Below, one piece after another: positions 5,162 through 55,805 of a stretch of 64,000 bases of DNA; positions within the stretch are counted from its first letter, which is position 1; each line of letters opens with the position of its first letter. Below the pieces are notes generated by a model that saw nothing but the letters and a program-made list of their open reading frames with translations, searched no databases and was not told the DNA's origin. The position numbers and the translations under genes were made by a program. Location of the stretch: the IMG/VR virus record IMGVR_UViG_3300031998_000004; one strand, 5' to 3'. The stretch is from a virus. Lineage: Duplodnaviria > Caudoviricetes.

Positions 5162-5587
5162 CTAAAATTTATAAATTTTCTTATGTTGAAAGGCTCTTCT
5201 TCTTATTACTTGAGAGATCCAATATTCATTAAATGCATTATATAAAGGCCAAAGTACCGCTTTATCAAAATAAATTTGATTCTTAAAAATCAGTTTTCTT
5301 ATGTCCGGGTGTCCAAACCCATGTGCGAATTTAGAAAAATCCCATTCCGAAGGAAGATCATAATTATCAAGCATCCTTGCTATATCAGCAACACCTTCAT
5401 TCATATAAAAATCCCAAACAACACTTATTGGAACAAACATCCTACCAGAGCGGCTCCTAAGCGCATCAGTAAATGTTCCAGACTTCTCTACTAAAACAAT
5501 TGCTCCATAATCGGTTGAAAAAAACCAATTGTAATGCTCAAGAATGAAGTCGTCTTGATTGGTGATATGATCACTAAATATACTCAT
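5162..5587 (-). CDS. MS[ILV]F-tag family hypothetical protein
   Basis: MSIFSDHI (start re-assigned). Confidence 0.75.
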   Translation of the reverse strand: MSIFSDHITNQDDFILEHYNWFFSTDYGAIVLVEKSGTFTDALRSRSGRMFVPISVVWDFYMNEGVADIARMLDNYDLPSEWDFSKFAHGFGHPDIRKLIFKNQIYFDKAVLWPLYNAFNEYWISQVIRRRAFQHKKIYKF

Positions 5588-5595
5588 ATATTTAA

Positions 5596-6033
5596 TTACC
5601 AAATAACTTCAGAATCTTTAAGTATATATAAAAACAATTGCTCCGCAAGATGACTCATCATTCCATGAGGAATAATATAGAAAGGAGTATCTTTGTATGT
5701 AATAAATTCACCAATATCACTAAATAACTTCATCGGATATATAACAACGCCCACATTATGTTCTTCTAGTTCCCGTTCGACTATAAATTTAAATTGCTCA
5801 TCAGTAATCTTCCCAATATATCCCGGACACATAGTATATATAATGTTCATCAATTCATCAAAACAAAGTAATCTCTGACCATTATATTCTTTTTCATATT
5901 CGCGACGTGGAAGAAGTTCAACAATAGTGCAGTGTCCTTTTCCGTCCGGCCCCACAGCTGGTATAAACCTTTGATTTATTAAACGGTATTCGGCTTCTTT
6001 GTCATACCCGTCTATTGAAGAAAATATACTCAT
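5596..6033 (-). CDS. MS[ILV]F-tag family hypothetical protein
   Basis: MSIFSSID. Confidence 0.75.
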   Translation of the reverse strand: MSIFSSIDGYDKEAEYRLINQRFIPAVGPDGKGHCTIVELLPRREYEKEYNGQRLLCFDELMNIIYTMCPGYIGKITDEQFKFIVERELEEHNVGVVIYPMKLFSDIGEFITYKDTPFYIIPHGMMSHLAEQLFLYILKDSEVIW

Positions 6034-6500
6034 TTCTTATGCGTGCGTTTGAAATACTTCGAGTTACACGTTTCTTTGGATATATAATTAAACATCGTCT
6101 CAATGATTCTATTTTTAAGACTAGATGGATTGGCATCATACAAATCGGTTTTAATATAGGTGTCTCCTTTATATTGCAAAACGCCACACTCCGTAATCAT
6201 TCTATTAAATCGAACCATAAGATTTCCCTCGTCCAGTTTACTTAATTCAATCTTGCCTCTGTCTTTTTTCGAGACAATATCTCGTATACTATCGAGTGTT
6301 CTACCTACATAGTAAAAGAAAACATACATCGGGTTATAATATACACTACCATGAGGATAACTAAACTTACCATCAAGATTTTTAGGAAAGAGTCCTTTCC
6401 GAATCCTTTTCCCCTTCACATAATCCCATTCGAGATTGTAAAGCTGCTCGATAGTATCATCGTTGGTTGCCTGGATGTTGTCGTTGCCAAATATACTCAT
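6030..6500 (-). CDS. MS[ILV]F-tag family hypothetical protein
   Basis: MSIFGNDNI. Confidence 0.75.
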   Translation of the reverse strand: MSIFGNDNIQATNDDTIEQLYNLEWDYVKGKRIRKGLFPKNLDGKFSYPHGSVYYNPMYVFFYYVGRTLDSIRDIVSKKDRGKIELSKLDEGNLMVRFNRMITECGVLQYKGDTYIKTDLYDANPSSLKNRIIETMFNYISKETCNSKYFKRTHKK

Positions 6501-6503
6501 GAC

Positions 6504-6962
6504 CTACTTATAATCGTAATTAAGTTTATACTTATATATCGGATATATACTACTTATATACTTTGCAAAGGACCTAATCAACCAATAATGATTTTGTTTT
6601 TCGTAATATTTGTGTTTTTTGTAAGTGATGTATTTTCCGTTTTCAATATCCTGAAAAAAGATCTTTTCAAGATCACGGATATGCCTCAACTCAACGTGTT
6701 TTCTAACCTTAATGTTTGCTGCTCCTTTTTTGTGAGATGTTCGAAGATCTATTTCAATCATCGTAACAGCCCCCTGATATATATCCCAAAAGTCAGTATT
6801 TCTCTTATCTACATACTCTACACCATCATATCTTATAGACCACACATCATTATATGCAGGGTCTTCACTCTTGAAAAAACTGTATCTTTTCATCTGGTCC
6901 GCGTGTTCTTCAAGAAAGGCGTCGTTAATTCCTTCTTCGGTTGTTCTATCAAATACACTCAT
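6504..6962 (-). CDS. MS[ILV]F-tag family hypothetical protein
   Basis: MSVFDRTT. Confidence 0.75.
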   Translation of the reverse strand: MSVFDRTTEEGINDAFLEEHADQMKRYSFFKSEDPAYNDVWSIRYDGVEYVDKRNTDFWDIYQGAVTMIEIDLRTSHKKGAANIKVRKHVELRHIRDLEKIFFQDIENGKYITYKKHKYYEKQNHYWLIRSFAKYISSIYPIYKYKLNYDYK

Positions 6963-6965
6963 ATC

Positions 6966-7424
6966 TTATTCAAGTGGTCCGTCCCAATGGAACTTGTGTT
7001 TCTCACAATACTTTAAAATCAAGTTAATTTCATACATGGTATGAAAACTACGAACATCCCGCCAACAAAAATAGAGGAGCCCTTTGTACATATGCGCTCT
7101 TATTTCTCCATTATCATATGCCTTTTGAATAGCTCGGAGGTAGTGTCTTTTATCTATACGAATATTAGAAAATTCCTCTACATGATACTGTTTTGCCATC
7201 TTATAGGTTCTCCAAGGCCTCCAATCATTATACGCAGCTATAGCAGTGCAGTAATCTCCGCGATCCCATATATCATGGGGTGCTTTGTTCATTCTTGGAT
7301 ATAACCATCCATCGCTCCTACCCCATGCACCATTCCACAAGGGAGCGTCCGAGTCCTCAGATCTTTCGTACCACTGGCTAAGGATTTCGTCAGATTCTAC
7401 TATATGATTGGTAAATATACTCAT
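6966..7424 (-). CDS. MS[ILV]F-tag family hypothetical protein
   Basis: MSIFTNHI. Confidence 0.75.
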   Translation of the reverse strand: MSIFTNHIVESDEILSQWYERSEDSDAPLWNGAWGRSDGWLYPRMNKAPHDIWDRGDYCTAIAAYNDWRPWRTYKMAKQYHVEEFSNIRIDKRHYLRAIQKAYDNGEIRAHMYKGLLYFCWRDVRSFHTMYEINLILKYCEKHKFHWDGPLE

Positions 7425-7819
7425 AGTCCGTGATGTCTTAAAATTATGTCTCTATCCATATCGTTTTCAAAACGACATAAATCTCCAACATTGTAATAAG
7501 TCTCTCCATTCAGAATCAGGATTCTAACATCACCGCTGGCTACCTTTCTGGAGAGTTTGTTGATATAAGTCTGTCTTCTAGGTTGATAGCTGATTCGGAA
7601 CCCAGCAAAGTAGTTTCGTTTTCCGGCGAGATAAGTCTCCCAAGCTTCTTCAAGTATAATATAAGAAGTGTGTTTGTATGTGGAGCCACGATCTCCCTTA
7701 TCGATAAGGTAAGTCCGGTCTTCTCTCTTACCACGATCAACATTGGTATAATATCCCAACTCGAACTTTTCGAGAATTATATCGTCTGCTTTGGCTATAT
7801 GATCTTCAAATACACTCAT
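7421..7819 (-). CDS. MS[ILV]F-tag family hypothetical protein
   Basis: MSVFEDHI. Confidence 0.75.
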   Translation of the reverse strand: MSVFEDHIAKADDIILEKFELGYYTNVDRGKREDRTYLIDKGDRGSTYKHTSYIILEEAWETYLAGKRNYFAGFRISYQPRRQTYINKLSRKVASGDVRILILNGETYYNVGDLCRFENDMDRDIILRHHGL

Positions 7820-7822
7820 GTA

Positions 7823-7853
7823 TATATTTACTAAAACTCTCTCAAATCTTTAG
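7823..7853 (-). promoter_or_regulatory. putative phage promoter YTAAA-N18-TAWW
   Basis: CTAAA-N18-TAAATATA directly upstream of MS[ILV]F array A; same spacing at >=10 other sites. Confidence 0.6.
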
Positions 7854-7886
7854 TTTTTGCTATCATACTTCGTGTATAACAAAAGA

Positions 7887-32321: not shown

Positions 32322-33443
32322 TTATTTAAATGATTCATATAAATAATCTGATAAATCCATACATTCCTTAACTTTCCCATGTTTGTCGATGTAAACTTTA
32401 TGTTCTGCATCTTTTGGAGATCCGTCCGGCCAATAGAATTTACCACCGCGTGGACCTGTATGGGTCGTTACTTTCTTTTTCTTTCCGTCCTTATCGGTGA
32501 TCTCTTCTTGTTTTATGATATTACCATCCTTATCTTTTTCGACTTCTTTTTCAGACCCTTTATTTTTTGGAGCAAAATCAGATAGATCTCCTTTTTTTGC
32601 AAATTTTCGTTCATTCTTTCTAGCATTTTTGGCTGCTTCCTCATAAGTGGCTAAATCTGTTGAGGATATATGTTTTGAAATTTTTTCTATTTTCTTTAAT
32701 CCTTTATCAACTTTTTTCCTTCCTCTATCTGTATCCCATTCTTCAATTTTAGTCACCAATCTATCATAATTTTTCCTACCAACAGTGGATTTTAAAGCAT
32801 CTTCAAATTCATCAGGGCTTCTTTCTTCACCATTTTCATCATATATACAATGATTTAATAGAAGGTATTGTTTTTTTAATGAATTTCGAACTTTTTCATC
32901 ATCTGCTGTTTGAGAAGCCGAATACATAATCATCATTCGTTTTTTAAGATCATCCATAGATTTTTTATTTTCCGCTTCTTTATCAGCTTGTGCATTTTGA
33001 TATTTGACATATTGTGATGCTCCCCAAGTCGCAACAGCAATAGCTTTTCCAACATATGGGATATCCTTTACATGTTTACTTACCACCGATTTTAAAATAT
33101 CTCCCCCAGCATCTACACCAAATTGTTTCAGCTTACGTAATTGTTGTTCTCTTTTGGCGTCTTCTTTTTCGGATTCGGTAATTTGAGTATCCACAAAAAG
33201 AGATTCAGATAAAAATCCTTCAATATCCTCATCAGAAATATCTGCCATTTTTAAGAATTCATCATCTTTCTTATTTTTCTCCTCATCCTCTTTTGAGTCC
33301 TTTTCTTCATCATCAACCACTTCTTCAAGATCATCCGCATCGAGTTTGCCTTTTTTCCAGGTTTTAAAATAATCTATGACTTTCTTACGAAGATCATCGT
33401 CTTCTATATCATTAATATTTATATTTAATCCTTCTTTTATCAT
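32322..33443 (-). CDS. highly charged hypothetical protein, possibly virion
   Basis: Internal LSESLF; C-terminal TGPRGGKFY motif. Confidence 0.65.
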   Translation of the reverse strand: MIKEGLNININDIEDDDLRKKVIDYFKTWKKGKLDADDLEEVVDDEEKDSKEDEEKNKKDDEFLKMADISDEDIEGFLSESLFVDTQITESEKEDAKREQQLRKLKQFGVDAGGDILKSVVSKHVKDIPYVGKAIAVATWGASQYVKYQNAQADKEAENKKSMDDLKKRMMIMYSASQTADDEKVRNSLKKQYLLLNHCIYDENGEERSPDEFEDALKSTVGRKNYDRLVTKIEEWDTDRGRKKVDKGLKKIEKISKHISSTDLATYEEAAKNARKNERKFAKKGDLSDFAPKNKGSEKEVEKDKDGNIIKQEEITDKDGKKKKVTTHTGPRGGKFYWPDGSPKDAEHKVYIDKHGKVKECMDLSDYLYESFK

Positions 33444-33453
33444 GATCTCAAAC

Positions 33454-33813
33454 TTAATTTAAAATGGCTTCTATTTTATCCTTATCAGAACTATTATCCA
33501 CATATGGTAAAATGACTTTTTTAATCACATTATCAATACCATCATCCACATCACATTGATCCTTAGCATCTTTTCCTATTTTATTTATATTACCTTTCAA
33601 TATCTTAAGTAATATATCGAATTCTTTTTTATGATTAGGATATTTTTGTACAAACTCATCCACCCATTCATCTAATTTCGAATTTGCTAAATCCAAACCG
33701 ACCGTTATTAAAACACGCTTCAATAATGGTAATAATTTTGTTCCGATTTGTTTTAATAAAGCTGGAGAGATAAACGCTTCATCAACCACCAAATATGTAT
33801 ATAAATCTTTCAT
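33454..33813 (-). CDS. hypothetical protein with CTS-like leader
   Basis: Start re-assigned to MKDLYTYLVVDE. Confidence 0.6.
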   Translation of the reverse strand: MKDLYTYLVVDEAFISPALLKQIGTKLLPLLKRVLITVGLDLANSKLDEWVDEFVQKYPNHKKEFDILLKILKGNINKIGKDAKDQCDVDDGIDNVIKKVILPYVDNSSDKDKIEAILN

Positions 33814-33899
33814 ACTATTATAATAATACTTGAAATTGGTGTTGTTTTGGTTTAAATATTTAAACACAATTTTTATTTTACCCATTATTATTTTCATAT

Positions 33900-36800
33900 A
33901 TGGCATTAAATAACGTAAATAAACCAAAACAAAACACTCCAGATTTTGCGAGTGTAACTAATCTTGTTAATAGCTTTGTAAATTCTATACAAAGCCTTGA
34001 TAAGATAAACAAGAAAAATATTAGAAAAAATGTATCCGTACTCAAATCTGTGGTACCGGATATAATTAAATTTGTGAATATTGGTGAACAGTTATCTAAT
34101 TTAAACGTCCATATTGATCAAACTTCTTTAAATAACAATAAAATAGTTTTAGAACATATGACTAAGACTATATCTGTTATGAAAGAAATGAGTGAGTTGA
34201 AGGTACCATCAATGATGATATTTTATTACAAATTAAGTAAGTTTAGAAATCAGCTTGGTAGTATCTTAAATATATTCTTTGGCAAGCACGGAATAATTGA
34301 TTATTTTAACGCACTAGATTTCACAAATGCATCTGATAAAAAAGAAGTTGTTGATGAAAAAACACATAAGATTTTTTCATTCAAAAGAAAAAAAACTATT
34401 GATTTAAAAAATACAAAGACATCTATAAGTCTATTTGAAGAATTAGTAGACTCTACTATCGGTATAGTCAAAAAAACATCTGAACTTGGTATGATGGTCT
34501 TTAAGGCTAGTATTGTACAAAGAGCTACTTTACCGCTATTGAAGAAAATCATACGAAATTATATAGATTTATTAGATAATAGACATCTTAAAAAACTCAC
34601 ACAAGACAGTGAGAAAAATTCTATAATATTTATCGAACAAAATATTAGAGCAATCTTCAATATTATAAAAACCGTTTCGAGTCTTGACGAAGAAGATGAA
34701 AAGAATGCTAAACAAGCCGAAAAGGTAATCCATAGTGTATTGCTCAATATGATGAAGATAATAAAAGCAATATCTAGATTCTCTGAAAGAATGAAAGCTA
34801 TAAATATCGAAGACATGAGCAATTCGGTTAAAGCTATTAAAGGAATTGTTGATAGTATGCTCTTCGTTATTGGTGAAATTCTTCTTCTCGCAATAAGTTC
34901 GGTACCTTTAGCCTATGCATTTATGCCTGCTCTCATTTCAATAATTATGATAGGAGGGTTTATTAGAACCGTCATGTGGACTGTAAAAAGGATTGGTAGA
35001 AGAAGAGATTATTCGCAAACACTTATAGCTGTTCGTAATATAGAAAAGATAGTAAGATTGATGGTTTTGATGGTGGGCGAAATATTAGTTGCATTTGCAA
35101 TTATTGCAATGGCTGCACCGTATATAATAATGTATTGGAAATCCACAGCTAAAATATTTGCCGTTATAGCATTAGCTATTCTTGCAATTGCTAGACTTGC
35201 TAGATTAGTCGAGTGGATAATTCGCTGGGGTGGAAATAGATTAGAAATGGGTCTTTTCTTGATCATGATACTTATAGGAGATATCCTAATAACATGCGGT
35301 GCATTGTTATTGCTTGGCTATATGGGGAAATTATTCTTCAAGAATAATATATGGCTGGCTGCAATGGGTATGTTTATCATAGTATCTGGTGTGATAACAG
35401 CTATATCCATTCTTGGGTATATGATAATGTTAATGATTCCTGGAATAGAAGCTTTCGCTTTAGGTATAAGTCTTATAGCGTTATCTATTTTGGCAATGCT
35501 TATAATAGGTAAGGAATTATTACTTCTTACCGAATTCGAATTCGATCAAGATGATCGAGAAGCTGTTCGAGAAACAACTAAAACTATTATAGGAGCTTCT
35601 ATGGATGTGATAGATGCTGTGTTTAATGGGTTTGATGAAGAAGGAAATATTATTAAAGAACCAACGGATGATCATGGACGTAAAATAGGATTATTTAGAA
35701 AAGTATTTAGATCAATCTTTAAAGGTTCTGCTCTTATTGTCGAGGCACTCGCAACATCAGTGGTTTTGGTCCTCACAGTAGTATCTGTCACCATGACGCT
35801 TATCTTAGGTGCAGAATTACAATTCGTTGCTCAATATAAAATTGATAGAAAAACCGTTGAAGAAAATGTTTCAAAAATAATGAATACCGCCGAATATTGT
35901 ATTTATTCGGTTTTTGAAGATATGTCTACAACAAGGACAAGAAACACCGATGGTTCATATACAGTAACTCGACATATTCCAAAACGCACTATTATGGCAT
36001 CTCTTCATCATTTCTTTTCTGGTCTCGCTAATATTCTTGAGTTGGTCGTTTCTGTTGGTAAGTTAGCTGTTATCATGATATCAATAGGGTTAATCAGATT
36101 AACAGGAGAAACTCTTAAATGGGTAACTAAATTTGATACAACAGAAGTAAGTAGTGCTGGTGAAAAAGCAGCATCTATCATGAAAGCCGCAAATGCTTGT
36201 GTTGAAGTGATATTTAACCCCAATGAAGATGAAGGAAACGGGAAGAAAAAGAAAACGAGAGTGAATAGAGGTAATCCGAAACGCAAATTATGGAGATTAG
36301 TAAAAGAAGTATTTAAGAATATCAGCAATGATATGTTCGTGGAGATGGGTAAAACTGGTGTTGTCTTAGCTGCTATTAGTTTGATAGTATTAGTAGCAAA
36401 AGAATTAGATTATTTAGCTAAATACACACTTCCCGAAGATAATACTATTGTTGCTAACGCTCAAAATATTATATCTACTGCAAAAGCATGTGCTGATATT
36501 GCTTTTGGTGAAGATATAATAAAAGATAGTAACGATGAACTGAATACAAAACTCGAGAAATTTGGTCAGTTTGCAAATTCAGTAGAATCTACAAACAAGG
36601 CAATAGTTAGGATATATAATTCGATTAATAATATCGATGCTGTTAAACTAGGAAAAGCCGCAAGAATATTGACAGAAGTTCGTGATGGTAAACGAAATTC
36701 CTTTATTCGCGATGCTGTTGAGTATATGAAAGATATATCACAAAACAGTTTCGATATTAAAAGATATAATGAAAACGTCCATGCGCTTGACACACTCGTA

Positions 36801-47655: not shown

Positions 47656-47781
47656 AAAGAGCGAAAAGTAATGACGTTGGTCAGGCGGGGATTCGAACCC
47701 CGGTCTCTTCATCATTAGTGAAGTGTCTTGTCCTCTAGACTACCCGATCGGACTAGCGAATAGGAACTTTATATGCTCTTT
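47656..47781 (-). ncRNA. scaffold RNA copy 1 enclosing a tRNA-like (AAU anticodon) cloverleaf at 47678-47749
   Basis: GCATATAAAGTTCCTATT...TTACTTTTCGC closing stem; CTTCA-CTAATGA-TGAAG arm. Confidence 0.7.
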
Positions 47782-47790
47782 AAAAAAAAA

Positions 47791-47935
47791 ACACTCGCGG
47801 AAAGTAAGCAATATTTCGTCGGCTATGCCATTTGCCTATCTCCCGAGAGTATGAATGATTTTTTGCCGGGAGAGCTGGACTCGAACCAGCATACAACGAA
47901 TCCAGATTAGCAATAGGAACTTTCTATGCAAGTGT
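47791..47935 (-). ncRNA. scaffold RNA copy 2 with circularly permuted tRNA (YrlA-like)
   Basis: Order T arm, acceptor 3' strand, linker, acceptor 5' strand, D arm inside the conserved closing stem. Confidence 0.75.
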
Positions 47936-47940
47936 AAGGT

Positions 47941-48031
47941 ACAAGCGAGAAGTAATACAACTCCGGCTATGTCGGAATTGAAGGAATCGAACCTTCGTTG
48001 ACCATTTTAAATAGGAACTTCTTTTGCTTGT
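47941..48031 (-). ncRNA. scaffold RNA copy 3 with T arm + loop-closed acceptor stem
   Basis: GAAGG-TTCGATT-CCTTC then AATTCCG/CGGAGTT. Confidence 0.7.
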
Positions 48032-48108
48032 TGGTGGGCACGGGTGGATTCGAACCACCGGCTTTCACTTTGTAAGAGTGACGGTCTAAACCACTGGCGT
48101 ACGCGCCC
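48032..48108 (-). tRNA. tRNA-Val(UAC)
   Basis: TCACT-CTTACAA-AGTGA; encoded CCA. Confidence 0.9.
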
Positions 48109-48407
48109 ATAGATGCCGCATTTACGGTAGTGCGGCCAACCCAAGAATCGCTCTTCGAGCGAACCCGTAACCCCTCTCGACAACTTGGTCGACGGGAAAT
48201 ACCCAAACTAACACATGATGTCTCAGTCTCTCGGAAAGGATTTCTTCCGGTACTCTTCCAGTAATACCTCTTTATGATACCATATACGTTCTATATTTGG
48301 ATTAATAACGTTGCTCTACATATACCCATATTACCTCTTGCGGTCCACACCTTGGCATTGTTCCAATCTACCAAGTTCATTCCGTGAATTGTTAGTTGTA
48401 CAAGACG

Positions 48408-48479
48408 TGGACACATGTGGGATTTGCACCCCTCTGTCACATTGCAAATGTGACGTGCTACTATTACACTACATGGCCC
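48408..48479 (-). tRNA. tRNA-Ala(UGC), atypical
   Basis: TCACA-TTTGCAA-TGTGA; G3:U70; variant T loop TGCAAAT. Confidence 0.7.
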
Positions 48480-48766
48480 ATATGAAACACATCTACCACA
48501 GATTGACAGTCACTAGCCTTTATTACTCCAATCTCCTTATTTGTAATGAGACCATTGTTTAACTATTACAGGCATACCTCCCTACCTCGATGTGTTATAA
48601 AAAAAGAACTAATGATACTCACCTCAGCACCAATCTTGGCGTACTTCCCATCGAGTATCTGACCACCTCTCTTTATTAGTTCTTAATTAAGAGCATAATT
48701 GATACTAGTCTCAATTAATTGTTATATTAGAGCGGTATATCACCTCACTCTCTAATATATCTCTTG

Positions 48767-48837
48767 CGGTCCATAGGAGTGCTGCCCTCCTGACCTTGGC
48801 GTGACAAGCCAATAGTTTACTGTTAGCCTAATGGACC
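48767..48837 (-). tRNA. tRNA-Asp(GUC)
   Basis: TTGGC-TTGTCAC-GCCAA; G73; variant T loop. Confidence 0.8.
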
Positions 48838-48844
48838 AATATTG

Positions 48845-48917
48845 CGGCTCGGACAGGGTACGATCCTGTAACCTATTGATTAACAGTCAATTGCGCTACC
48901 AATTGCGCTACCGAGCC
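48845..48917 (-). tRNA. tRNA-Asn(GUU)
   Basis: ATTGA-CTGTTAA-TCAAT; G73. Confidence 0.9.
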
Positions 48918-48929
48918 ATGCTCATATGT

Positions 48930-49658
48930 TTATTTGTAATTTTCTTTTATATATTTTTTCAATTCTTCCGATTTATGTGGTAATCCAAATCTTTTACAAT
49001 AATTTTGTATAGTCATAAAAGAAACACCGTATTTCTTTCTTAAACTATCCATAATATAATTACATTCGGTTAAATCTTCAATCAACTTTTCTTTCGTTAT
49101 TTGAACCTTTAAGTTATTTATTGATTTTTGCACACAACTTTTTGAACAAAATCTTTGTTGTTTATATTTTACTTCAAATTCTTTACCACAGTATTCACAA
49201 TTTTTAATAACATGTTTTCCCCATTTAACACTACTGTGACAAAAATTATCAGTTTGTGAATGACAATTAGGACAAAGCAATTGTAAATTTTCTAATCTAT
49301 TATCACAACGATTTCCATTTATATGATGAAGTTGGAGAGTTATTGGACTATTGTTCCATTCAGTAATACCACAACATTCGCATTTATTTTCTTTATATTT
49401 TAATATTCTCTTTTTTAATTGGCCTGTTCCTATAAAATGATCATGAATGGAAAATAACTCTTCATCCGTGAACATTTTTTTATTAGGATTATATTTTATA
49501 TTTTTATCAAAATGCGAAATATCTATATTATATATAGTTATAAGTTTTTTAATTCTATCATAATTATTATTAGTTGGTCTTAATCCAACTATATTACAAA
49601 CGTTAAATATATTATTACTATTTTTAACGGCTTCTTCTAAAATTTCTTTGTTAATCAT
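48930..49658 (-). CDS. HNH homing endonuclease
   Basis: CECC...LQLHHINGNRCDNRLENLQLLCPNCHSQT. Confidence 0.9.
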   Translation of the reverse strand: MINKEILEEAVKNSNNIFNVCNIVGLRPTNNNYDRIKKLITIYNIDISHFDKNIKYNPNKKMFTDEELFSIHDHFIGTGQLKKRILKYKENKCECCGITEWNNSPITLQLHHINGNRCDNRLENLQLLCPNCHSQTDNFCHSSVKWGKHVIKNCEYCGKEFEVKYKQQRFCSKSCVQKSINNLKVQITKEKLIEDLTECNYIMDSLRKKYGVSFMTIQNYCKRFGLPHKSEELKKYIKENYK

Positions 49659-49721
49659 ATTCTAACCCTCAACTTTATATAAAAATAATAAAGTGTGGGT
49701 TAGAATTTATTTAATAATTTG

Positions 49722-49792
49722 TTGCGGTACCTGGACTCGAACCCGGAAGCTCTCCTTCAAAGGGAGGCATGTTACCATTACATCATACCGCA
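49722..49792 (-). tRNA. tRNA-Gln(UUG)
   Basis: CTCC-CTTTGAA-GGAG; U1-A72. Confidence 0.85.
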
Positions 49793-49798
49793 ATTCTG

Positions 49799-50409
49799 TG
49801 ACCCCAGGGGGACTCGAACCCACCGACCCCAACATTCTTACCACTATAGCTTTCGCTACCAATTATCCTCTGTTTCTGCTTTTACTTTTGCCTATTCAGT
49901 TGCCTTTGTTTCCCTTTTCAGCATATCTCAAGAAACATGTTTCCGAGTAATTGTTTGTGGTCTGGACTCTATCTTAACCATATTGAAATCTTGCAAGTAA
50001 TTATCTCTTCTTATAGCTACAATGATTAGTGTGGTTTCAGCTCCACCGATTTGATAACATTTCAACTTAGGTTCCTCCTGTATAGTCTCTACACACTGTC
50101 TAAGATTTAACTACCCTTCATATAGTCGTTATCTTGGGTAAGTGGTCTTACGATTCCACTACATCTTTAACATTGGCTCGGTATTGGCATATATGGACTG
50201 TCTTCTTCCGTCTGGACTCTAAAGCGATGCTTCTGTGTTACCACCAGCATTAACCAGGAGTGGTTTGTTATTTAGACGATTGTCCGCAACAATGCTCCGT
50301 ACATCCATACTTAGCTTTTGCCGAATTAGGGAGGATTTTCAATGTATCTTTCAACACAAAGTTCCAATTTTTCAAAAGTGTTGTGCTCTACCAACTGAGC
50401 TATGAGGTC
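49799..50409 (-). tRNA. tRNA-Lys(UUU) split by a group I intron (exons 50374-50409 and 49799-49836)
   Basis: Joined exons give CAACA-CTTTTAA-TGTTG and a full cloverleaf. Confidence 0.88.
49837..50373 (-). mobile_element. group I self-splicing intron (537 nt, no ORF seen)
   Basis: Core-like AATTCGGCAAAA, AATACCGAG, GTAGAGACTATA, AAGATAGAGTCC; follows exon U, ends in G. Confidence 0.88.
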
Positions 50410-50434
50410 CTTCCATTTTTCTATGAGTTATTTG

Positions 50435-50593
50435 TAGCATATCTTGGAGTCGAACCAAGTATTTCCAGGGTAATCTTCCTGGCGAGCTTTGTGTCCGGTA
50501 GACCTTTATCCTAACAGAAAGAATTTATTTGCACTTCAACTCAATCCTGGATGTGGTTTCCACTTCTGTGTGTCTCCGACACTCTCATATGCC
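50435..50593 (-). ncRNA. tRNA-like RNA with ~90-nt D-arm insertion
   Basis: Acceptor GGCATAT/ATATGCT, canonical T arm, CCAGG-AAGATTAC-CCTGG arm. Confidence 0.6.
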
Positions 50594-50668
50594 GACAAGT
50601 CAGTGTGTATGCATCACCTCCTGAACTTGTGAAACAGGTTTATATGTATGACAACTTCGCCTGTTTTG

Positions 50669-50745
50669 TCGGGGTGGAGGGATTTGAACCCCCGTGCAAC
50701 CAGCTACGGTTTCGACAAGGTATAAGCTTGAGCCGATACACCCCG
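50669..50745 (-). ncRNA. D-arm-less tRNA-like RNA (UAU loop, long variable region)
   Basis: CGGGGTG/CACCCCG; CAAG-CTTATAC-CTTG; T arm present. Confidence 0.6.
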
Positions 50746-50751
50746 AATGTG

Positions 50752-50827
50752 CTGGGATGAGAGGACTCGAACCTCCAACCGTCGACTTAACGGGCCGCTG
50801 CTCTCAACCAATTAAAGCTACATCCCA
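50752..50827 (-). tRNA. tRNA-Asn(GUU), C33 variant
   Basis: CGGC-CCGTTAA-GTCG; G73. Confidence 0.8.
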
Positions 50828-50833
50828 ATATAG

Positions 50834-50960
50834 TGAATATGGTCGGATTCGAACCAACATAGCCTGTTACTTCTCATCACCTCCCTTTAACATCGTCATG
50901 AAAGGTTCAAACGGAATATAGATTTTCTCCAGTAGCACATCCAATCTGCTTCACATATTC
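50834..50960 (-). ncRNA. tRNA-like RNA with ~60-nt anticodon-arm insertion
   Basis: GAATATG/CATATTC, D arm, canonical T arm GTTGG-TTCGAAT-CCGAC. Confidence 0.6.
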
Positions 50961-50961
50961 G

Positions 50962-51039
50962 CGGCCCATAAGGGAGTCGAACCCTTCTTCTTACATACGC
51001 TGACGACGTAGTTCCACCTCACGGGTGGCCTAATGAGCC
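50962..51039 (-). tRNA. atypical tRNA-Asp(GUC), C33 variant
   Basis: GGCTCAT/ATGGGCC-G73; TACG-TCGTCAG-CGTA; unusual D hairpin. Confidence 0.55.
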
Positions 51040-51133
51040 ATTATTATAGACCGGGACTTACATTGTGCTACTCATGACTAACACCAACTATCTATTGATA
51101 GTGTCGGATTCAAACCGTACTCCTAACGCCAAG

Positions 51134-51206
51134 TAGACCCGGGGAGACTCGAACTCCCATCACCCTGTTTAAGAGACAGGTGCATCAACCATTCTGCCAC
51201 GAGTCC
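51134..51206 (-). tRNA. tRNA-Lys(CUU)
   Basis: CCTGT-CTCTTAA-ACAGG. Confidence 0.9.
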
Positions 51207-51292
51207 ATAGAATGCTCATCTAACCTTTAATTCAACTTTTACAACCAATTACCGGATGAGCCTGCAAGTTTTAGTCAACTATTCCTAGAAAG

Positions 51293-51370
51293 TGGTACTC
51301 CCAGAAGGACTCAAACCTTCAACCTTGTCCTTAGGACGGACCTGCTCTCGTTCAATTGAGCTATGGGAGC
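51293..51370 (-). tRNA. tRNA-Arg(CCU)
   Basis: GTCC-GTCCTAA-GGAC; encoded CCA. Confidence 0.85.
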
Positions 51371-51377
51371 AAATGTT

Positions 51378-51444
51378 AAATCGCGAGAAGTAATAGTCAA
51401 AATAACTAGTTGTGTTTTCTTAATAGGAACTTCTTATGCAATTT
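51378..51444 (-). ncRNA. scaffold RNA copy 4 (no tRNA cargo)
   Basis: GCATAAGAAGTTCCTATT...TTACTTCTCGC around a short hairpin. Confidence 0.65.
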
Positions 51445-51450
51445 CAATGT

Positions 51451-51690
51451 TTATTCAGCTTTCTCGTCTTTCTTGGTCTTCTTGGGGAAGAGTTTCTTAT
51501 AGAGAGTGTAGAATCCGAATCCCTCTACAGCAAGGTTAGCACCAGCAACCCAACCATAGAAACTACCAATAGCACCAAGTGCAACTGCGTTCCATACTCC
51601 TGCTGCAGCGATCAATGCCGCGAAGCAAGCAAGTCCGAAACCAGCAACTTTTGCAAACTGAATCAATGTTTCTTTATTACTATCTGTCAT
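51451..51690 (-). CDS. small membrane protein inside tRNA region
   Basis: Two hydrophobic helices, basic tail. Confidence 0.7.
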   Translation of the reverse strand: MTDSNKETLIQFAKVAGFGLACFAALIAAAGVWNAVALGAIGSFYGWVAGANLAVEGFGFYTLYKKLFPKKTKKDEKAE

Positions 51691-51726
51691 AATCGATTAT
51701 GTTTATTTATGAGATTGAGAATCTCG

Positions 51727-55707: not shown

Positions 55708-55732
55708 TGATTTTCTTATATATTTTCTCTTG

Positions 55733-55805
55733 TGACCCCAGTGAGACTCGAACTCACGATCCACTCTTTAAAGGAGAGTTGCTTTACCAGCTCAGCTATG
55801 AGGTC
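55733..55805 (-). tRNA. tRNA-Lys(UUU), C33 variant
   Basis: ACTCT-CCTTTAA-AGAGT; same acceptor stem as intron-containing Lys. Confidence 0.8.

Follow-up and report, generated by a model that had tools for sequence, protein, structure and literature searches.

A 64,000-nucleotide (nt) stretch of phage DNA (Duplodnaviria; Caudoviricetes; IMG/VR record IMGVR_UViG_3300031998_000004), referred to in its full length as the window, encodes four small RNA elements in which a constant paired handle encloses a variable insert, the cargo, part of which is derived from transfer RNA (tRNA). An initial annotation, made from the sequence alone, read these elements as a phage family resembling the Y RNAs that are bound by Ro60. 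The questions raised by the locus are whether the elements are Y RNAs, which protein they might serve and what the cargo might do. The handle is a widespread structured RNA family outside Rfam, it is linked to the gene of a large protein with a C-terminal TerD fold, and the two probably form a ribonucleoprotein (RNP) with a function like that of Ro60 and its Y RNAs.

Four RNAs with a shared handle in a phage tRNA array

The four handle copies lie on the minus strand and share one layout: outer stem, GC, AWA bulge, 6-base-pair (bp) inner stem, UCCUAUU, cargo, U, returning strand of the inner stem, C bulge, GC and returning strand of the outer stem. The 3-nt bulge, AUA or AAA, faces the single C.

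47656-47781, minus strand: copy 1, handle halves around a complete cloverleaf; outer stem 47775-47781 / 47656-47662, AUA bulge 47772-47774, inner stem 47766-47771 / 47664-47669 (one U.U), UCCUAUU 47759-47765, C bulge 47663
47678-47749, minus strand: cargo of copy 1, tRNA-like cloverleaf with anticodon AAU (ARAGORN; Rfam tRNA 58.7 bits)
47791-47935, minus strand: copy 2; outer stem 47928-47935 / 47791-47798, inner stem 47919-47924 / 47800-47805
47941-48031, minus strand: copy 3; outer stem 48026-48031 / 47941-47946, inner stem 48017-48022 / 47948-47953
51378-51444, minus strand: copy 4, a minimal handle; outer stem 51438-51444 / 51378-51384, inner stem 51429-51434 / 51386-51391

The number, coordinates and strand of the copies are as first annotated. 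The minus strand has exactly four mismatch-free matches to the 5′ motif RAAGTTCCTATT (47759-47770, 47912-47923, 48010-48021 and 51422-51433) and likewise four to the 3′ motif TTACTTYYCGC (47661-47671, 47797-47807, 47945-47955 and 51383-51393), each 3′ motif being partnered by one 5′ motif. RNAfold closes all four copies via the outer and inner stems originally drawn, and the outer stems, said to differ in sequence and yet to pair, measure 7, 8, 6 and 7 bp in copies 1-4. Two of them contain G.U pairs where the opposite strand would give A.C. The inner stems read UAAAGU/ACUUUU (with one U.U) in copy 1, GAAAGU/ACUUUC in copy 2 and AGAAGU/ACUUCU in copies 3 and 4; their proposed covariation is confirmed, but the proposed length of 5 bp has to be corrected to 6 bp, including a G-U/A-C step.

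Four cargo types had been proposed, namely a cloverleaf with anticodon AAU, a permuted tRNA, a T arm with closed acceptor and nearly nothing, and ARAGORN and RNAfold recover all of them. The handle-enclosed cloverleaf of copy 1 has a normal 7-nt anticodon loop with A34, G37 and an Ile-type anticodon; it also has a mismatch, A2.C71, and lacks an encoded CCA. By the criteria for canonical genes (7-nt anticodon loop, free acceptor ends), copies 2-4 do not count as tRNAs. In copy 2, a tRNA body in circular permutation serves as cargo, its acceptor closed by a loop and the handle taking the place of the anticodon loop; given the rotated copy, ARAGORN calls a tRNA whose 52-nt 'intron' corresponds to the handle. 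Copy 3 carries a T arm plus a loop-closed 7-bp acceptor minihelix according to RNAfold, and copy 4 a 30-nt apical loop.

Copy 3 begins 0 nt after a tRNA-Val gene (48032-48108) and copy 4 stands 7 nt before a tRNA-Arg gene (51293-51370). A U9 tract follows copy 2 and a U-rich run copy 1, and short direct repeats (UAUU, CUAUUA, UAUUGCU) are found at both cargo borders of the window copies. The handle core GAAGTTCCTATT (47759-47770 and the three other cores) coincides with 12 nt in the half-site of FRT, the target of the FLP recombinase, most likely by chance; handle pattern searches may, however, pick up FRT scars in engineered genomes.

The handle defines a widespread RNA family

Altogether, 179 unique handle copies with 33 different inner-stem sequences were collected by scripts from phage contigs, the cultured cyanophage S-CRM01 and Bacteroidota chromosomes. 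An IMG/VR scan in which only the 5′ half was specified returned 75 loci, in about 40 of which the 3′ half matches as well and the outer stem, though different in sequence, can pair; the other ~35 pattern matches are chance or unrelated, as are most pattern matches in bacterial genome contigs. The handle consensus is aaagGCAUAgGAAGUUCCUAUU...UUACUUCcCGCcuuu. The UCCUAUU segment, initially described as invariant, is so in the window copies but not across the family, where relaxation of the loop sequence left GU-UCCU as the sole fixed element.

Pairing of the handle was assessed in two ways. Among 460 5′ anchors, 203 are followed by a complementary 3′ strand, compared with 66.6 +/- 5.8 in controls in which the 4 variable bases were swapped among anchors, a design that does not presuppose pairing. 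In alignment A3 (63 sequences, its rows selected by script on condition that they pair), double changes are seen in 15 of 18 pairs, and none of 500 shuffles attained the observed values. The G.U pairs of the family are compatible solely with the strand that encodes the tRNAs.

A covariance-model search, as the initial annotation had advised, matched copies in phage records and in bacterial genomes. In the window itself, model R1 matches copy 3 (31.7 bits, E 7e-6) and copy 4 (58 bits, E 7e-13); it misses copies 1 and 2 because their inserts are long, and these two were found by pattern and pairing scripts. Rfam searches of the window at the gathering score and at E<=5 and E<=10 returned tRNAs and noise only, with no match to Y_RNA, YrlA, a ribozyme or Pedo-repair. 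A direct Rfam match had been named as what would remove the novelty; the handle matches no family even at E<=10. No published description of the motif or of its protein partner was found, although unnamed entries in catalogs of candidate phage RNAs (PMC10690425) may contain the motif.

The cargo varies widely across the 179 copies:

Short or unstructured loop: 107/179 copies
Other stable hairpin: 41/179 copies
T arm contained: 23/179 copies
Strict anticodon-arm look-alike: 8/179 copies (3.2 expected by chance)

Permuted tRNA bodies were found in seven cases, that is, window copy 2 and 6 other loci, L004, L024, L050 and L148 among them. Whole enclosed cloverleaves likewise number seven with window copy 1 (the others being L011, L013, L053, L081, L091 and L093); those of the other loci often have odd anticodon loops or a CUA anticodon, plus an encoded CCA directly before the 3′ handle strand. 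Among viral copies, 26% abut a same-strand tRNA within 12 nt and 47% lie within 500 nt of one. A U-rich tail follows 31 of 136 viral (23%) and 15 of 40 chromosomal copies (38%). The element does not qualify as a Rho-independent terminator on these counts and as a 45-145-nt hairpin with conserved internal loops.

Handle RNAs are linked to a large TerD-fold protein

A scan of bacterial genomes located true short copies in Chryseobacterium, Flavobacterium and Bacteroidales. These chromosomal short copies always lie directly upstream, and on the same strand, of a gene for a conserved hypothetical protein of ~583-609 amino acids (aa), from here on referred to as the partner protein. The distance from handle to gene in Bacteroidota is 6-140 nt. 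Bacteroidales have a single copy that ends 6-12 nt before the start codon, and tandem copies directly upstream of the partner gene are found in phages and Flavobacteriia. The gene order in Chryseobacterium is RtcB, a handle-bearing cloverleaf, three tandem short handles with covarying inner stems and the partner gene; RtcB adjoins handle and protein in Flavobacterium as well. In three whole bacterial genomes, all covariance-model matches fall at one locus, beside the partner gene, and of 61 genomes sampled from the family to which the Chryseobacterium genome belongs, the same 2, and no others, have the RNA and the protein, side by side in each.

The Chryseobacterium cloverleaf (L109 4761-4868, minus strand, Chryseobacterium balustinum) is perfect and lies beside RtcB, with the handle replacing its anticodon loop in circularly permuted order. 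Running from 3′ half through closing loop to 5′ half, this arrangement mirrors the permutation of window copy 2, and the two structures are therefore one fold written in two circular permutations.

Nine of 10 handle-bearing phage records encode the partner protein (the tenth is 30% complete), among them all 6 that are at least 90% complete; none of 5 control records, which hold chance pattern matches only, encodes it. In records G003-G006, every covariance-model match flanks the partner gene, mostly as 3-5 tandem copies immediately upstream. The megaphage record G001 has one copy 47 nt upstream of the partner gene and others in its tRNA region; some of its copies lie >20 kilobases (kb) from the gene. 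In Synechococcus phage S-CRM01 (NC_015569; L238), the partner protein is encoded by g174 (5977-7818), annotated as hypothetical, in the middle of a tRNA array, with four handles upstream and one downstream (at 5516-5965 and 7825-7878). A small annotated open reading frame (ORF) on the opposite strand, g173c, overlaps the handles and is probably not a gene.

The partner protein is generally ~580-690 aa long and consists of an N-terminal domain without recognizable relative and a C-terminal TerD fold. Searches against Pfam, NCBIfam, PHROGs and PDB sequences gave no match, and the Pfam TerD hidden Markov model (PF02342) found none either. At E<=0.001 the family comprises 1678 clusters (50% identity); in its nearest Atlas clusters, the viral share is 70-91%. 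An AlphaFold (AF2) model was obtained with a predicted local distance difference test score (pLDDT) of 93.5 and a predicted template modeling score (pTM) of 0.91. Its C-terminal 160 residues form a TerD beta-sandwich (Foldseek probability 1.0; Z 10.3 to 2qz7_B, with a root-mean-square deviation of 3.0 over 141 aa, and Z 9.3 to 2kxt). For the N-terminal 370 residues no clear fold relative was found (best Z 5.3, Foldseek E>0.05), a result that is no proof of a new fold. No Ro60/TROVE structure is among the fold matches of the whole model or of the N-terminal domain.

Two of the partner genes match in two pieces: 48994-49734 and 50636-51709 in G008 (the record of L058), ~900 nt apart, and 33171-34724 and 34809-35057 in G005, 85 nt apart. 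An intron, an intein, a homing-endonuclease insertion or a frameshift could account for these splits. The neighbors of the partner gene in five sampled phage loci include no second conserved partner; a microbial PARG was seen in 2 of the 5 (G001/G002), those with corresponding neighbors. In G001, this ORF (L226 68-793, plus strand) encodes a protein with a PARG domain (ADP-ribose glycohydrolase) of the microbial type and is located two genes upstream of the partner gene; a similar ORF is found in L225.

Handle RNAs are not members of the Y RNA family

Membership in the Y RNA family fails on the partner protein, on the binding motif and on the Rfam model. The initial annotation had noted that the window holds no Ro60/TROVE gene, and none was found in its large ORFs. 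It had also proposed to look for co-occurrence with Ro60/TROVE and with RtcB. TROVE (PF05731) is absent from all five handle-bearing phage records searched, the same search being positive in Deinococcus and Bacteroides controls, while RtcB adjoins the handle in Flavobacteriia and is present in 3 of 5 handle-bearing phage records. The Ro60-binding signature is GNCGAAN0-1G in bacteria and GGUCCGA in vertebrates (PMC4201824); the handle consensus contains neither. Y_RNA (RF00019) and YrlA (RF02553) have no window match at E<=5 or E<=10, and the best YrlA score anywhere, 29.4 bits against a gathering score of 69, is confined to the tRNA-like cargo of L148. A tRNA-like module of the YrlA type (T arm, D arm, loop-closed acceptor, attachment via the anticodon stem) is present in copy 2 and 6 other loci, but is lacking in copies 1, 3 and 4 and in most family members.

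The Y RNA reading had been made dependent on a link to Ro60, and as no such link was found, it is therefore refuted as a statement of family membership. The name does not hold, whereas the architecture first described does: a constant handle with interchangeable, partly tRNA-derived cargo, tied to one protein. That handle RNAs may work like Y RNAs, by analogy, survives as a reading.

Other features of the window

The window is phage-like. ORF domain scans identified a large terminase, an RNA ligase, QueC, HAD_SAK_2, phosphoesterases and HNH and GIY-YIG endonucleases. Its tRNA array occupies ~46.6-56 kb of the minus strand, with 19 tRNAs called by ARAGORN and 20 Rfam tRNA matches, and both HNH and GIY-YIG genes are situated within it. 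By terminase, the nearest cultured phages are Tenacibaculum phages (32% identity). Megablast of the four-copy region against deposited phage genomes gave no relative, and an exact 49-mer from the window end had no match in JGI metagenomes.

Three features of the array stand apart from the handle copies. A tRNA at 55732-55805 (minus strand; ARAGORN; Rfam tRNA 63.9 bits) has the anticodon UUA, of the ochre-suppressor type, which hints at stop-codon recoding or suppression in this phage. At 50666-50745 (minus strand) lies an 80-nt tRNA-like RNA with acceptor stem and T arm and without a normal anticodon arm, giving a weak Rfam tmRNA match of 26.7 bits, under the gathering score of 47. Lastly, the part of the array at 48100-50700 (minus strand) holds tRNA-like fragments as well as long unassigned gaps, with an HNH endonuclease ORF at 48930-49658; it may include interrupted or degenerate tRNA genes, and group I intron models gave no match there.

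Proposed function and alternative explanations

We hypothesize that handle RNAs are small non-coding RNAs that dock the TerD-fold protein in an RNP with a function like that of Ro60 and YrlA, assembled from unrelated parts, and consider this reasonably probable. The paired structure of the RNA, the family, its gene linkage and the protein fold are demonstrated by the data; protein binding, RNA processing and a role in tRNA surveillance are what we infer. Specifically, the rod-shaped handle, with its AWA bulge facing C, its inner stem ending in G-U/A-C and UCCU(A/U)(U/A) opposite U, would most likely be the docking site for the ~580-690 aa protein, and its apical end tolerates any insert. In some copies this end displays tRNA modules, be it an anticodon-less tRNA body, an acceptor/T minihelix, an anticodon-arm look-alike or a whole cloverleaf. 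The window RNAs would be transcribed along with the tRNA array, and the enzymes that trim neighboring tRNAs would release them as discrete RNAs of 65-145 nt. The resulting RNPs would act in trans by offering tRNA-like surfaces to tRNA-directed enzymes, and their likely role would be in tRNA damage control or repair, or as decoys, as for Ro60 with YrlA. A repair theme is suggested by the adjacency of RtcB in Chryseobacterium and Flavobacterium and by the RNA ligase, HAD_SAK_2 and phosphoesterases of the window. Action in trans is supported by the lack of a partner homologue in the 64-kb window and by the viral copies that abut tRNAs. More speculative is a wider version, which we put forward tentatively: a modular phage and bacterial RNP, convergent with Ro60 and Y RNAs, in which one protein would read a universal handle and the exchangeable cargo (anticodon-less tRNA bodies, minihelices, caged cloverleaves) would program which tRNA-directed enzymes of host or phage are captured, decoyed or recruited, amounting to a phage-encoded library of tRNA baits in a conflict over tRNA cleavage and repair. 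Phages such as that of the window may then carry the RNAs only and obtain the protein from elsewhere.

Several observations weigh against a docked RNP of this kind. The window encodes no partner homologue detectable by tblastn, by hmmsearch --max in six frames or by hhalign against its 447-aa ORF, although the partner gene may reside in another part of the phage genome or come from the host. A distant relative (61% identity in the terminase) lacks both the RNA and the protein. In the majority of copies (107 of 179) the cargo is a short or unstructured loop, such that tRNA mimicry is not universal, and strict anticodon-arm look-alikes are weakly enriched, 8 against 3.2 expected. The selection of the A3 rows for pairing has to be counted here as well, and in Bacteroidales the handle directly precedes the start codon, as would equally be expected of a cis-regulatory operator. 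TerD domains are not known to bind RNA.

Such an operator is the main rival. The handle would be a cis-regulatory leader in the 5′ untranslated region of the partner gene, through which the protein or a ligand controls translation or transcription, and the array copies would be by-products or titrating decoys. As a general explanation this is possible but rather unlikely. Besides the 6-12 nt spacing in Bacteroidales, it is favored by the tandem copies directly upstream of the gene in phages and Flavobacteriia and by the U-rich tail that ends 38% of chromosomal copies; it may well be true for gene-proximal copies. It does not account for copies that occupy tRNA slots or for those of G001 that lie >20 kb from the gene, and arrays of 3-6 tandem copies with differing structured, tRNA-like cargo exceed the needs of a simple operator. 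The window copies are at least 12.5 kb on one side and at least 47 kb on the other from any partner gene and, with no partner gene within the 64 kb, therefore cannot be cis leaders of it. Both modes of action can coexist, for example as autoregulation through mimicry of the trans ligand.

The remaining explanations are less likely. In one, the handle is a maturation device, intron-like or caging, that retains unusual tRNAs, permuted or blocked at their ends, for later release or re-joining by an endonuclease together with a ligase (RtcB or Rnl), which would make handle RNAs precursors of functional tRNAs as opposed to non-coding RNAs. The permuted handle in the anticodon loop of the Chryseobacterium cloverleaf beside RtcB, the whole cloverleaves enclosed in copy 1 and at six other loci, often with CCA encoded right beside the 3′ strand of the handle, the recurrence of permuted bodies and the presence of RNA ligases all fit. 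We nevertheless consider it improbable: 60% of copies have no tRNA part at all, permuted copies have a loop-closed acceptor and encode no anticodon, several embedded cloverleaves have abnormal anticodon loops and no splicing endonuclease was found. It is very unlikely that the handle punctuates transcripts as a terminator, RNase III/E processing site or self-cleaving ribozyme separating the units of a tRNA operon. Rod-like interrupted hairpins do stand between tRNAs, ribozymes and RNase III sites typically have conserved internal loops, and copies 1 and 2 are followed by the U-rich run and U9 mentioned above; yet only 23% of viral copies have a U-rich tail, no Rfam ribozyme matches at E<=10, and the strict linkage to one protein family and the single locus per bacterial genome would go unexplained. 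Hardly more credible is a DNA-level element, that is, a small mobile inverted repeat, or else the target of a recombinase or homing endonuclease, spreading through tRNA arrays and catching tRNA fragments by accident. Multiple copies per genome, the HNH and GIY-YIG genes of the array, the direct repeats at the cargo borders and the match of the 12-nt core to part of the FLP target would agree with it, but the stems differ by compensatory changes and share no terminal repeats, the G.U pairs make the structure strand-specific and the orientation is always that of the tRNAs and the partner gene.

If handle RNAs do dock the TerD-fold protein, a large family of orphan proteins would gain a function, as would gaps in phage tRNA arrays that now go without annotation. 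This would also account for some of the odd or permuted 'tRNA' predictions and for probably spurious calls of small ORFs such as S-CRM01 g173c. The system would offer a testable entry into how phages handle tRNA damage, and a handle with a free apical insertion site would be a natural RNA scaffold. Cultured Synechococcus phage S-CRM01 and culturable Chryseobacterium and Flavobacterium strains allow direct tests.

Comparison with known systems

Permuted and intron-containing tRNA genes are known, for example the permuted tRNAs of Cyanidioschyzon and the archaeal bulge-helix-bulge (BHB) introns. In copy 2 and its relatives, as in the former, the 3′ half of the tRNA is encoded ahead of the 5′ half, and like the latter, the Chryseobacterium handle sits in an anticodon loop, with the RtcB ligase adjacent. 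Unlike in BHB introns, the central helix of the handle is 6 bp long, and its 3-nt and 1-nt bulges are on opposite strands at the same end. Handle RNAs further differ from both kinds of gene in that no splicing endonuclease was found, no anticodon is encoded and most members lack a tRNA part.

Autoregulatory operators offer a second comparison. The thrS operator mimics the anticodon arm of tRNA-Thr, and ribosomal-protein leaders are further examples. Handle RNAs share with these the placement of a structured element directly before the start codon of the gene of its presumed binder, as well as tRNA-like features. Unlike operators, the handle also exists in numerous copies at a distance from the gene, and its cargo is exchangeable.

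The closest functional parallel is Ro60 (Rsr, with TROVE and vWA domains) with bacterial and phage YrlA/YrlB, as in the Salmonella rsr-yrlBA-rtcBA operon (Chen et al. 2014, PMC4201824). In both systems, which are each found in phages, small RNAs are encoded beside the protein gene and in some lineages beside RtcB, and paired ends form a long stem as protein handle, a role that is presumed for the RNAs described here. Window copy 2 additionally shares with YrlA a distal tRNA mimic with T arm, D arm and loop-closed acceptor. The differences lie in the parts: the handle is unrelated in sequence and structure, the partner has neither a TROVE match nor a recognizable Ro60-like fold, the cargo is far more variable than in YrlA (nothing, hairpins, a minihelix, a whole cloverleaf) and the copies are found in arrays of 3-6 and within tRNA gene clusters. 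If the pairing of RNA and protein holds, this would be a second, independently evolved Ro60/Y RNA design, and one much commoner in phages.

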